Assembly (NCBI GenBank): GCA_945867155.1
Contig: CAMBHL010000003.1
Location: 160,099-200,098 of the forward strand
Length of the DNA: 40,000 nucleotides
Reading direction: 5' to 3'
DNA from: an uncultured Eubacteriaceae bacterium
Lineage (GTDB): Bacteria > Bacillota > Clostridia > Eubacteriales > Eubacteriaceae
Translations under genes and position numbers: made by a program
Shown: piece by piece, positions 1 to 7,185 of the stretch
Layout of the letters: the number at the start of each line of letters is the position of its first letter
How positions within the stretch are numbered: position 1 is the first letter of the stretch
The notes under the pieces: generated by a model
Told to the model about the DNA's origin: nothing
Databases searched by the model: none
What the model saw: the letters and a program-made list of their open reading frames with translations, nothing else

Positions 1-374
1 ACCACGATGAACTTCGTCCAACCGTATGCCTTGTTCAGCTCGTACATGGTCTTGATGTAGGTATAGGTTTTTCCGACGCCGGTCTCCATCTCGATGGTCA
101 GGTTGTATTTGCCCTCGAGCGACTGTGACGGCTCGATCTGACCGTCACGCTGGATCTTCCGGATATGCTCAAGTATCTGTCCGTCGGACAGCTCCGGCAC
201 GATTTTGGCGTTCGCCCAGCCGGTGAAGTCATCCGCATCCATGATGATCTGATTTTGTTCGCTGCCTCTGTCTATCATGTAGGATGGCGTGAGGTACGGC
301 TGTCCGGCGAAAACGTCCACGACGGCCTTGGCGGCGTCAGCCTGAAACTTCTGGTGCTTGAATTGCAGTTTCAT
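1..374 (-). CDS. res: Type III restriction endonuclease Res subunit (SF2 helicase-nuclease). Only the N-terminal ~124 codons are present; the gene continues past the left edge of the window.
   Basis: Open frame absent from the ORF track because it has no stop in the window. ATG at 374-372 is preceded by GGAGGT (revcomp of 381-386), directly after the mod stop. My translation is [27 protein letters not shown]...[34 protein letters not shown]. The ETGVGKT helicase motif I and the N-terminus are typical of Type III Res proteins. Confidence 0.8.
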   Translation of the reverse strand, partial: [124 protein letters not shown]

Positions 375-386
375 TCTGCCACCTCC

Positions 387-2249
387 TTAAATAACCTTGA
401 CTCTTGTATCCGGCGCAAGCAGCTTGAAAATCTCGCCGACATTGATCTTTGCCGGACTGTTGGCGAAGCTGGAGTCGCGGAACACGGCACGCAACGGCTG
501 ACGTTTGGCAATGGTCTTGATAACTGACTCCGGCACGTTCTCATCAAAGCAAGCAATTAAATCGCCGTCATTGTAAGTGTGTACCGTGCAGCCTTCGATG
601 GTTTCAGAAGTGTACGGAAGCGACAGCGGAAGTCCCCATTCGAGCAGGCAGCCAAACAATAAATCCAAATCAGTACGGTCAGATTTAACGTTGGACTCCA
701 TCATCGTGAGCATGTCCTGCGTGTAATCTCCCGCGGCGTAATAGACATTATTCATGTTGGAGTCATCGATCTTTAGATCGCGGAAGCCGTCGTCAAACTT
801 TGCGTCAGGATTGTCCTCGTGAATCTTCTTTGCAGCGCGGCGGATGCGTTCCTTGCCGATTTCGCAGATGTTCTTGTAGCCGGCTTTGAATGCCTCGCTC
901 TTTTCGTCCGTCTCTTCCCGCAACTGCACCATGATGAACTTGCGGTGTCCACCGTCCTCGGCGTTCAGCTGCATGACGGCGTGGGCAGTCGTAGCGGAGC
1001 CAGAAAAGAAGTCGAGGATGATGTCATTTTTTTCTGTTGCATGGTAAACAAGGCGCCGTATCATTTCTACTGGCTTTACCGTATCAAATCCATTATTTGG
1101 CAAAAGTGTTTTGAGTTCGCTCTTTGCACTTTCCGCTGTTCCTATTTCTTTCGAAAAAAATCCCCAGAACGGCTGCGTCGATTCATTCCTTTCATATTCT
1201 GGACGCATTTTTATAATTGCTTTTCCATTTTCGATATACAAATCTCCTGCTTGCCTGTATTCGGCAACTTGGTCTTGACCAAGTTTCCACTGTTTCCCCG
1301 CAGGCGGAGAAACAGTGGAAACTCCATCCGTAATATCAAAAATCATGCTTTTCCGACCGCGAACGCCATTGGCATTCATGACCTCGATAGGATATTTGCG
1401 ATATACTCCTCTATCATCCTTTTCCGGATATTCTTTTTCTCCAAGTTGGATTAAATGAAACCTCCGCTTTTCTTGATTCGAGTATACAAGAATCATTTCT
1501 TCTTTCGGTTGGAGTTTATTGTAGGATGTTTTTGTATTTTGCGATTTTGTTTTCGACTCCCAATAAATTTCTCCTATAAAATGACTTTCACCAAATATCT
1601 CGTTGGCGATCGAACGCATATTAAAATTCTCGTTATAATCAATCGAAATAAAAATAACCCCATCCTCACTCAGCAAATTTCTCGCTAGCATCAGCCTTGA
1701 GTAAATCATCGAACACCAGTCAGAATGATATCGCCCTGCAGATGCCGAATTTTCGCGTTGATAATTTACATTCCCATCCTCATCAAAATACCCCGTTCCT
1801 TCGTTATAATCCTCATTGTCCATGATGAATGAATCTGGGTAAATAAAGTCGTGCCCCGTATTGTAGGGAGGATCTATGTATATCATCTTGACCTTGCCGA
1901 GATAGCTTTCCTGCAGGAGCTTCAGGACTTTGAGATTGTCTCCCTCAATATAAAGATTCTCGGTCGTATCCCAATTGACGCTGTCTTCCTTGCACGGGCG
2001 CAGGGTTTTGCGGATAGGACGGTTCGCCTCCACGATGGATGCTTTTTTGCCAACCCATGTAAACTCATAGGCCTCGTCACCGTCGATCACGCTGTCGGAC
2101 AGCATCTGCTTCAACAAATCGAAATTGATGGCTTTCTTCAAATGCCCGTTTTCATCCCGTGCCTCTGTGACGCAGTTTGGGAACAGCGCGGCGATCTTCT
2201 TGACGTTCTCCTGCTGGATGTCTTCGGATTCCATTCTCATTTTATCCAT
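387..2249 (-). CDS. mod: Type III R-M Mod subunit, beta-class N6-adenine (or N4-cytosine) DNA methyltransferase
   Basis: 620 aa ORF. Motif IV IYIDPPYNTG lies at aa ~123-132 and SAM motif I FFSGSATTAHAV at aa ~414, so motif IV precedes motif I (beta class). It sits immediately upstream of res. Confidence 0.85.
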   Translation of the reverse strand: MDKMRMESEDIQQENVKKIAALFPNCVTEARDENGHLKKAINFDLLKQMLSDSVIDGDEAYEFTWVGKKASIVEANRPIRKTLRPCKEDSVNWDTTENLYIEGDNLKVLKLLQESYLGKVKMIYIDPPYNTGHDFIYPDSFIMDNEDYNEGTGYFDEDGNVNYQRENSASAGRYHSDWCSMIYSRLMLARNLLSEDGVIFISIDYNENFNMRSIANEIFGESHFIGEIYWESKTKSQNTKTSYNKLQPKEEMILVYSNQEKRRFHLIQLGEKEYPEKDDRGVYRKYPIEVMNANGVRGRKSMIFDITDGVSTVSPPAGKQWKLGQDQVAEYRQAGDLYIENGKAIIKMRPEYERNESTQPFWGFFSKEIGTAESAKSELKTLLPNNGFDTVKPVEMIRRLVYHATEKNDIILDFFSGSATTAHAVMQLNAEDGGHRKFIMVQLREETDEKSEAFKAGYKNICEIGKERIRRAAKKIHEDNPDAKFDDGFRDLKIDDSNMNNVYYAAGDYTQDMLTMMESNVKSDRTDLDLLFGCLLEWGLPLSLPYTSETIEGCTVHTYNDGDLIACFDENVPESVIKTIAKRQPLRAVFRDSSFANSPAKINVGEIFKLLAPDTRVKVI

Positions 2250-2251
2250 TA

Positions 2252-6800: not shown

Positions 6801-7037
6801 CTCACGAGTAAGCCGAGGAATATAAAACTCGCGCTTCTGCTTTTTCGATTTCTCTGTTACAAAGGTCGGCGATGTGAAGATGAAGCGGAACTCATCAATG
6901 CTTTCGAGCTGCTTTTTCAATTCACTATAGGCATACATAGAAAAGCAAGCCGCTGCCACGGAAACCTTGCTATTCCGCTTTATCGTTTTTTCCATGTCAT
7001 CTCGAACGATGTTCGTGACATTATCAAATACCTTCAT
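3804..7037 (-). CDS. SNF2-family (SF2) helicase/translocase, ~1077 aa, with unassigned N- and C-terminal extensions
   Basis: Motif I is [15 protein letters not shown], motif II [13 protein letters not shown], motif III [9 protein letters not shown], and the helicase-C block is [41 protein letters not shown]. The start is placed at ATG 7037 (MKVFDN..., upstream GGAAGGCGAG). The track ORF extends to a GTG at 7148, but those 37 extra codons look like a relic (see findings). Confidence 0.85.
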   Translation of the reverse strand: [1077 protein letters not shown]

Positions 7038-7135
7038 TAACTTTTCTCGCCTTCCATATGTAATCTCTTTATCATATACGACCTGTTGATGAAAGTAAGC
7101 ATTATGCGTCAGGATAAAGATCTGTTCAATGTACC

Positions 7136-7185
7136 AATCACGAGTCACAACCTATCAAATATCTAATCACGAGTCTCAACCCTAT
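7136..7185. repeat. Imperfect 20/21-bp direct repeat with a 29-bp period at the island border
   Basis: Copy one is aatcacgagtcacaacctat at 7136-7155. Copy two is aatcacgagtctcaaccctat at 7165-7185, with 1 mismatch and 1 extra base. The first copy overlaps the GTG at 7148. Confidence 0.7.

Follow-up and report, generated by a model that had tools for sequence, protein, structure and literature searches.

Canonical Type III restriction-modification (R-M) enzymes, exemplified by EcoP15I, EcoP1I and StyLTI (Mod2Res), need only their Mod and Res subunits. Their self-sufficiency has been described (PMC3632139), and annotation pipelines, PADLOC and recent reviews regard Type III R-M as consisting of two genes; a 2025 review of R-M makes no mention of SNF2, and a 2025 study of the lactococcal defensome counted Type III systems as R + M only. 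Class 1 DISARM, in turn, is composed of the SNF2 protein DrmD together with DrmMI and DrmA/B/C, and ARMADA of the SNF2 protein ArmA, the methylase ArmB and the helicase-nuclease ArmC. R-M loci with variable co-expressed extra genes are already known in general (PMC3632139), and PrrC is embedded in a Type IC R-M locus (PMC12707154; PMC3632139). Here, we analyzed a 40,000-nucleotide (nt) stretch of an uncultured Eubacteriaceae bacterium (contig CAMBHL010000003.1; hereafter the window), in which the open reading frame (ORF) list gives a minus-strand run of five co-directional genes in the order SNF2, DUF4391, a gene for a 294-amino-acid (aa) protein, mod and res. Like canonical Type III loci, this one has mod followed by res, with DPPY and a variable target recognition domain (TRD) in Mod and with superfamily 2 (SF2) motifs in Res; the C-terminal nuclease motif PD...ExK is seen in a full-length relative of Res. 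It differs in the two genes ahead of the pair, SNF2 and DUF4391, in the insertion slots within the operon and in the separate clade of its Res. Mod and Res are not the only conserved genes at the loci of this family, a large clade that extends from bacteria to an archaeon and is nearly always found with SNF2 and DUF4391.

This association was established in a survey of 80 DUF4391 loci, one per species and 61–89% identical to the window in DUF4391, which are the closest 80 of at least 514. Most of them come from gut or oral Firmicutes, and others from Synergistaceae, Fibrobacter, Oxalobacter, Mailhella and Eremiobacterota. ORFs obtained by simple ORF calling were searched with the window proteins, and the counts are limited to contigs that leave room for the gene in question. 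SNF2 lies upstream of DUF4391 in 75 of 76 loci and Mod downstream of it in 75 of 76; Res follows in 57 of 59, and there SNF2 and DUF4391 accompany the Mod–Res pair. The few exceptional loci look decayed, with a split SNF2 or a shortened Mod. With distant DUF4391 proteins (22–35% identity), too, SNF2 comes first, followed by DUF4391, optional extra genes, Mod and Res; this arrangement is kept on plasmids of E. coli, Acinetobacter, Lactococcus, Paraburkholderia, Raoultella, Bacillus cereus and the archaeon Methanomethylovorans. On a Listeria plasmid the locus begins at the start of the record, so that DUF4391, Mod and Res are visible and SNF2 is not in view. Wherever the contig permitted a check, SNF2–DUF4391 was never seen alone or with another partner. 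Judged from these neighbourhoods, conservation extends to four genes (SNF2, DUF4391 and the Type III genes mod and res), and the five genes of the window do not form a fixed set. That SNF2 and DUF4391 recur together with a methyltransferase and Res, as an earlier note on this DNA had stated, is thus strongly confirmed by near-total co-occurrence in the 80 loci and the distant plasmids. All five gene identifications in that note (SNF2, DUF4391, HEPN-like, Mod and Res) held in Pfam, PADLOC and NCBIfam searches. The set as a whole was not assigned to a known system by PADLOC, in which Mod and Res are the only two of the five recognised as one; SNF2 is matched by an orphan model, DUF4391 by nothing and the 294-aa protein by the N-terminus of Stk2 only. 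We propose, with a probability of roughly 0.6, that the region is a single horizontally acquired operon encoding a four-component, Type III-derived R-M system that would need an SNF2–DUF4391 accessory motor, together with a guest gene for a putative guard or abortive-infection protein. As far as we found, two extra conserved subunits and defined cargo slots are new for Type III R-M, and the literature searched contained no experimental characterization of them.

The mod gene (387–2249, minus strand; 620 aa) encodes a Type III beta-class N6-adenine DNA methyltransferase, with matches to Pfam N6_N4_Mtase (6e-37), to PADLOC MTase_III over its full length (1e-210), and in the PDB to the Mod subunits of H. 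pylori (6e-65) and EcoP15I (1e-56); the DPPY motif is at residue 126. Across the 80-locus set, Mod is about 55% identical to the window overall. Residues 200–400 (approximately; 1050–1652, minus strand) share 14–37% identity with 59 homologues, compared with 60–86% in the flanks. Low identity between conserved ends points to classical TRD exchange, and TRD identity was uncorrelated with every other part of the system in Mantel tests on 42 complete loci. The TRD of the window also contains a 42-nt near-perfect palindrome (1282–1323; 20-nt arms, 95% complementary, 2-nt spacer) that is absent from all 105 loci compared and could be a hairpin, a recombination scar or a product of chance.

The window holds only residues 1–124 of Res, encoded from position 374 to the window edge (1–374, minus strand), the remainder lying outside. 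This fragment matches PADLOC REase_III (6e-33) and Pfam ResIII (8e-7), carries the Walker A motif GVGKT at residue 99, and scores 8e-18 against the NCBIfam Type III endonuclease model, below the cutoff of that model. It is 89.6% identical to the N-terminus of a full-length Res (1015 aa) in two relatives, L013 and L014. The full-length L014 protein matches EcoP15I Res at 3e-64 and has DEPQ and a PD...ETK nuclease motif, and Pfam RE_endonuc is recorded on the Res proteins of relatives. The locus therefore shows the hallmarks of Type III R-M, namely a Mod with DPPY and an internal TRD, directly followed by a Res with an SF2 ATPase and, as seen in the full-length relative, a nuclease motif. Within the 80-locus set, Res is about 75–91% identical to the window. 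Plasmid Res proteins linked to SNF2 are 33–49% identical to L014 Res, compared with 24–32% for P1/P15-type Res, and by these identities the SNF2-linked Res proteins form a clade separate from the P1/P15 type. PGAP labels Res of this clade only as "DEAD/DEAH box helicase", not as a Type III endonuclease.

The SNF2-family ATPase (3804–7037, minus strand) is 1077 aa long when read from its ATG. The earlier note gave this length as well, which stands; its end at position 7148 is merely that of the longest GTG-started ORF, and alignment of homologues favours the ATG at 7037. The protein matches Pfam Helicase_C (1.7e-14) and SNF2-rel_dom (2e-12), and its motor looks active, with GLGKT at residue 274, DESH at 360 and QRFGRIDR at 817 intact. 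No other protein of the operon is as conserved: its identity to the window is 73–98% in the 80-locus set (60 species), and the distant plasmid homologues retain 55–56% (proteobacterial), 45% (archaeal) and 44% (B. cereus). An N-terminal domain (1–235) and a C-terminal domain (approximately 870–1077, the last 200 residues) are conserved among homologues, and neither has a Pfam or PDB match. The best PADLOC model is the orphan "HKD+Snf2" (1e-121). An HKD nuclease, which this model name suggests, was rejected; the protein has no HxK(x)4D motif, and an alignment with distant homologues further excluded it, showing no conserved His or Lys.

The helicase core also brings the locus close to other SNF2-containing systems. 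The DrmD, BrxH, DpdE and ZorD models match this core only, and a DISARM-, BREX- or ARMADA-like system might be envisaged, in which SNF2 and Mod would sense unmethylated DNA and block its replication while Res would act as a DrmA/ArmC-type helicase-nuclease, without classical two-site cleavage. The SNF2 core is most similar to the DrmD, BrxH and DpdE models, and class 1 DISARM and ARMADA share a three-part logic, in which an SNF2 ATPase is combined with an adenine methyltransferase that acts on asymmetric sites and with an SF2 helicase linked to a nuclease; the same logic recurs here, assembled from Type III parts. We nevertheless consider such a system very unlikely at this locus. The NCBIfam DISARM_DrmD model scores 153 bits on SNF2, against a cutoff of 610, and again covers the helicase core only. 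Mod belongs to PF01555, unlike the PglX/DrmMI-type (pfam13659) methylases, and Res is a full EcoP15I homologue with a nuclease motif. Neither DrmA (helicase), DrmB (DUF1998) nor DrmC (PLD) had a Pfam or PADLOC match among the five operon genes and the three upstream genes, and no YprA-type helicase or PglZ is found at the window operon; no homologue of the B. cereus DrmA or DrmB occurs in any ORF of the 80 loci. For BREX, the defining PglZ, PglX and BrxC had no PADLOC match, and only partial BrxHI/HII matches were obtained, on the SNF2 core. DUF4391 is absent from the published descriptions of DISARM and ARMADA. One plasmid stands closer to DISARM: in B. cereus (NZ_AP022858.1; L098 1–11811, L101 12908–17736), drmA and drmB (DUF1998) lie 32 nt 5′ of SNF2–DUF4391–Mod–Res, a point in favour of a DISARM-like system. 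No drmC, drmD or drmMI is annotated at that locus, which looks like a DISARM/Type III chimera.

The DUF4391 gene (3127–3792, minus strand; 221 aa) matches its Pfam family at 2e-63, and no PADLOC or NCBIfam model matches the protein. The AlphaFold2 (AF2) model is of high quality (predicted local distance difference test (pLDDT) 95.3, predicted template modelling score (pTM) 0.90) and consists of an alpha/beta domain (approximately residues 1–160) followed by a long C-terminal helical hairpin or coiled coil. Foldseek found no significant match to it in the PDB or BFVD, and a profile search of PDB sequences gave no match. The family is large, with more than 8000 close matches and 2134 clusters at 50% identity, and a search of the literature for DUF4391 or PF14335 found no paper that discusses it. 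Identity to the window is 62–89% in the 80-locus set (61–89% in the locus selection). Some systems encode a second, divergent DUF4391 paralogue (approximately 278 aa; Pfam DUF4391 2e-20) between SNF2 and the regular DUF4391 (L028 1763–2578, L041 9129–9974, L053 9137–9973 and L084 9165–10001). DUF4391 is also contained in two unverified 13-kb "Bacteriophage sp." scaffolds from human faeces (L106, MT836075.1, and MT836122.1). The examined scaffold, L106, contains just SNF2–DUF4391–slot–Mod–Res and offers no evidence of a phage; these records are probably misfiled fragments of bacteria or mobile elements.

Based on these comparisons, we propose a plausible mechanism for the four-component system. 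Mod would mark one strand of the host DNA at a short asymmetric site, with the TRD setting the target. Mod–Res would detect unmarked invading DNA, which Res would cut. SNF2–DUF4391 would form an accessory DNA-translocase module on which Mod–Res of this clade depends, or by which it is strongly helped, and which may drive long-range communication along the DNA or clear the path for it. The coiled-coil tail of DUF4391 could serve as an adaptor joining the motor to the R-M complex. Such a role for SNF2 would resemble that of the SNF2 proteins DrmD, ArmA and BrxH, which partner asymmetric-site methyltransferases in class 1 DISARM, ARMADA and BREX, respectively, and the SNF2–DUF4391 pair could explain why SNF2 ATPases recur beside these methyltransferases in all three. 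The question is directly testable, because natural cargo-free versions of the system occur on E. coli plasmids.

The mobility of the operon bears on a different role for the pair. SNF2 is 97–98% identical between the window and Eubacterium sp. F2 and Dialister (L013, L014), and DUF4391 is 87–89% identical in Bifidobacterium pseudolongum, Dialister, Stomatobaculum and Eubacterium (P0083, P0070, P0026 and P0015; Bifidobacterium 87%). Near-identical copies in distant taxa point to recent cross-phylum transfer among gut anaerobes. No near-identical DNA was found in E. coli genomes, and only two short SNF2 matches were found in plasmids. A highly mobile system might use SNF2–DUF4391 as a regulator or protector of R-M, delaying restriction during establishment, relieving it at replication forks or countering phage anti-restriction proteins; because only one strand is methylated, establishment and replication are delicate stages for Type III systems (PMC12707154), and loss of SNF2 is tolerated, as described below. 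This role strikes us as a long shot. A 1077-aa motor under very strong purifying selection would be a costly regulator, the small helix-turn-helix (HTH) gene upstream in many loci is a more ordinary candidate for that function, and what speaks for the pair as regulator is indirect.

Several observations weigh against the proposed dependence of Mod–Res on an accessory motor. Canonical Type III enzymes work with Mod and Res alone. Mantel tests on pairwise identities, for the 42 best, complete loci, gave significant correlations within each half of the operon (SNF2–DUF4391, r = 0.42, p = 0.0005; Res–Mod core, r = 0.63, p = 0.0005), compared with an r of only 0.25 (p = 0.02) for SNF2–Res and of only 0.04 (non-significant) for SNF2–Mod core. 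This pattern suggests that the operon consists of two sub-modules that recombine at the junction between DUF4391 and mod, with partners always drawn from the same families. SNF2/DUF4391 and Mod/Res have partly separate histories, as independent modules would also show. Moreover, Mod–Res of the SNF2-linked clade is found without SNF2 and DUF4391 on an IS (insertion sequence)-rich Staphylococcus epidermidis plasmid (L100, NZ_CP121523.1), and in Lactococcus cremoris pJM1D (L097) Mod–Res is accompanied by an SNF2 gene interrupted by IS712. These two cases argue that the accessory pair is dispensable for viability and perhaps for restriction. In addition, the 80 loci are the closest relatives of the window and phylogenetically clustered, hence non-independent samples; structural searches give no clue to DUF4391; the HEPN fold match of the 294-aa protein discussed below is statistically non-significant (E 0.16) and its Pfam match sub-threshold; and the cofactor model is one that we infer from sequences, mechanism included. 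The two plasmids are natural "deletion mutants" of the accessory pair.

Most of these points would equally suit a stack of independent modules, in which SNF2–DUF4391 would be a separate defence or maintenance module beside an ordinary Type III R-M system, and the cargo genes further independent systems in a mini defence island. The weakly correlated or uncorrelated divergence of the left and right halves of the operon, the survival of Mod–Res where SNF2 or DUF4391 is not intact and the self-sufficiency of canonical Type III enzymes (PMC3632139) all favour such a stack. It has difficulty, however, with the near-total co-occurrence of the four genes, with a fixed order and translational coupling that hold from bacteria to an archaeon, and with the fact that SNF2–DUF4391 was not encountered by itself or with a different partner in any contig that allowed the check. 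Nor does SNF2 or DUF4391 have a recognisable effector domain, and the linked Res forms a clade of its own. We therefore regard independent modules as rather unlikely and retain the four-component system as the preferred reading. The earlier note had left the choice between a modified Type III system, a DISARM/BREX-like system and stacked modules undecided; that choice is narrowed by the sequence comparisons, without being closed.

The variable part of the operon is concentrated at two positions. Slot A, between DUF4391 and mod, is filled with one to three genes in 59 of 75 loci and empty in 16, and its 74 genes fall into 41 sequence clusters. Representatives encode a TIR protein, DUF6680, an AAA_15/AAA_21+DUF4435 (OLD-like) ATPase, a 1216-aa YobI-type NTPase, a Schlafen AlbA_2 protein, a trypsin-like protease, HATPase_c_4, DUF2971 and a 742-aa AAA_13 ATPase; the PADLOC candidate PDC-S46 and, in Raoultella, a UvrD-like ATPase also occur. 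About half of the representatives tested had no Pfam or PADLOC match. Slot B, between mod and res, is filled in 23 of 57 loci, mostly with YhcG/DUF1016 (a PD-(D/E)xK protein) and otherwise with RhuM or Bro-N+Fic. Cargo genes overlap the adjacent genes or are separated from them by very few nucleotides. A tentative extension of the four-component reading, possible and yet doubtful, is that SNF2–DUF4391–Mod–Res is a widespread "socket", whose two fixed insertion points take dozens of unrelated coupled effectors that would act as guards and fire when the machine is engaged or inhibited, with SNF2–DUF4391 as an essential new subunit pair that would make the Type III enzyme motor-driven. If this were true, many new defence genes would be expected among the slot occupants that lack annotation, and the two intra-operon slots would provide a simple and precise rule for finding them.

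In the window, slot A is occupied by the 294-aa gene (2252–3136, minus strand), which overlaps DUF4391 by 10 nt and lies 2 nt from mod, and homologues hold the same position in L014, L079, L082 and L102–L105. The N-terminal helical domain of the protein (approximately residues 1–120) matches only the N-terminus of the PADLOC Stk2 model (1.8e-14, residues 5–119). The AbiJ-NTD1 domain, which is helical, also occurs in fusions with Ser/Thr kinases (PMC3710099), and this accounts for the Stk2 match. The C-terminal half has a sub-threshold match to Pfam DUF4145 (5e-3; 17.2 bits, cutoff 23.1), and precomputed PF13643 matches are recorded on three homologues. An R246-x6-H253 motif (RDFRNYIH), which fits the HEPN Rx4-6H pattern, is invariant in 39 homologues with 61–93% identity. 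In the AF2 model (pLDDT 87.5) the C-terminal half is all-helical, and the top Foldseek matches are the HEPN toxins 7ae8 (probability 0.99) and 1ufb, at non-significant E-values of 0.16–1.2 and a template modelling (TM) score on the target of 0.52–0.64 (1ufb 0.64). The HEPN-like call of the earlier note is thus reasonably well supported, by the invariant Rx6H motif, by the rank of the HEPN toxins, although at non-significant E-values, and by the weak DUF4145 match. Collectively, the protein looks like an AbiJ-NTD1 + DUF4145/HEPN RNase-like protein.

This architecture has precedents. DUF4145 is described as a HEPN family whose members occur in R-M operons and in fusions with AbiJ-NTD1 (Anantharaman et al. 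2013, PMC3710099), and abortive defence by a DUF4145 HEPN RNase has been validated for RAZR/PD-T7-4 (PMC13017515). With RAZR/PD-T7-4 and the AbiJ-NTD1–HEPN architectures, the 294-aa protein appears to share a HEPN domain of the DUF4145-like type at its C-terminus, in which Arg and His are conserved, and in structure it comes closest to the same family of HEPN toxins (7AE6/7AE8), at a non-significant E-value; it differs in having no zinc-finger domain and a Pfam score below threshold. With PrrC and RloC, the anticodon nucleases of Type I R-M loci, it shares the placement of a putative RNase-type effector gene, predicted to be co-expressed, inside an R-M operon, and an AAA_13 protein (RloC-like family) is among the alternative occupants of slot A. 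Here, in contrast, the host is Type III-like with SNF2 and DUF4391, the putative effector looks like an AbiJ-NTD1 + DUF4145 HEPN protein without an ABC ATPase, slot A is far more variable than the prrC locus, and control by the R-M complex is something that we infer. In the four-component system, the HEPN guest would serve as a second-line abortive-infection RNase, released by a phage product or by failure or inhibition of the restriction machine, as PrrC is from EcoprrI.

The earlier note had seen the extra HEPN-like gene as a further elaboration of the operon, which agrees with the survey, where it is one of dozens of slot occupants and is present in slot A of 3 of 75 loci (L014, L079 and L082). 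Four further homologues (L102–L105, 64–78% identity) are all in slot A as well, and each of the eight contexts examined for this family is slot A of SNF2–DUF4391–Mod–Res or of its decayed remnant. The family is therefore specific to this system, yet optional for it. An independently mobile, stand-alone gene, suggested by a Limisphaerales homologue (P0236), was rejected; the 294-aa homologue is directly followed there by a 40-codon remnant of the Mod C-terminus (aa 581–620, 77.5% identity) and a slot-B RhuM gene, which identifies the locus as a decayed system. This remnant (L007–L012, 10001–12171; Limisphaerales and digester metagenomes) retains an intact 294-aa homologue, with SNF2, DUF4391 and Res gone. 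The identical protein occurs on many contigs, which suggests that the guest gene outlives its host system. Hidden Markov models (HMMs) of the two halves of the 294-aa protein found nothing significant in other cargo proteins, and an N-terminal adaptor domain shared among slot A cargo proteins was rejected on this ground.

The five genes are tightly packed. The ORF list and a reading of the junctions reproduced the coordinates and spacings given in the earlier note: 11 nt between SNF2 and DUF4391, a 10-nt overlap of DUF4391 with the 294-aa gene, 2 nt between that gene and mod, and 12 nt between mod and res. The last spacer (375–386, minus strand; TAA GGAGGTGGCAGA ATG) contains a GGAGGT ribosome-binding site immediately 3′ of the mod stop codon. 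Among the 80 other loci the median gaps are 12 nt for SNF2–DUF4391, −4 for DUF4391–cargo, −1 for cargo–Mod and 13 for Mod–Res. Short gaps and overlaps being typical of these loci, the tight coupling is not a local accident. Terminator-like sites between the genes are not above chance (4 found, 6.6 expected). The G+C content of the operon is 0.40–0.49, compared with 0.53–0.58 for the flanking genes (rlmD-like, MntR-like and YgiQ-like).

A consensus scan placed a promoter-like site (TTGAAC, 17 nt, CATAAT; 7101–7129, minus strand) approximately 65 nt 5′ of the SNF2 start codon. Just upstream of it, two 18-nt direct repeats, GTTG(T/A)GACTCGTGATT(G/A)G, lie 29 nt apart (7134–7151 and 7163–7180, minus strand), with two matches found and 0.03 expected; they are a possible operator. 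The repeats were not found 5′ of SNF2 in other loci, and their conservation is thus not borne out. In 22 loci, small HTH genes are located immediately 5′ of SNF2, Cro/C1-type HTH_26 in 15 and HTH_17 in 7 (for example, L079 6489–6704 and L072 2307–2513), and in Raoultella (L001) a WYL-domain gene occupies the same place. These HTH and WYL genes are candidate controllers of the operon. Unlike many of its relatives, the window has no small HTH gene upstream of SNF2.

At the other end of the operon, GmrSD-type (DUF262/DUF1524) Type IV restriction genes directly follow res in L102 (15346–16897) and L103 (14432–16252), and genes for DUF2130 and an AAA_13 ATPase follow it in L105, indicating that the system sits in small defence islands. 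Elsewhere in the window, tRNA-Gly and tRNA-Leu are encoded at 21913–22082, and a PolA gene is present too; together with a ChW-repeat lysozyme and rhamnose-pathway genes, it points to a host that is probably Clostridia-like. A low-G+C stretch (28000–38100; 0.34–0.42) carries surface polysaccharide genes for an acyltransferase, glycosyltransferases, and RmlC-like and RmlD-like proteins, and is adjoined by an 883-aa ChW-repeat/ricin-lectin/GH25 lysozyme gene; like the tRNA genes, this stretch and its neighbour are unrelated to the operon.

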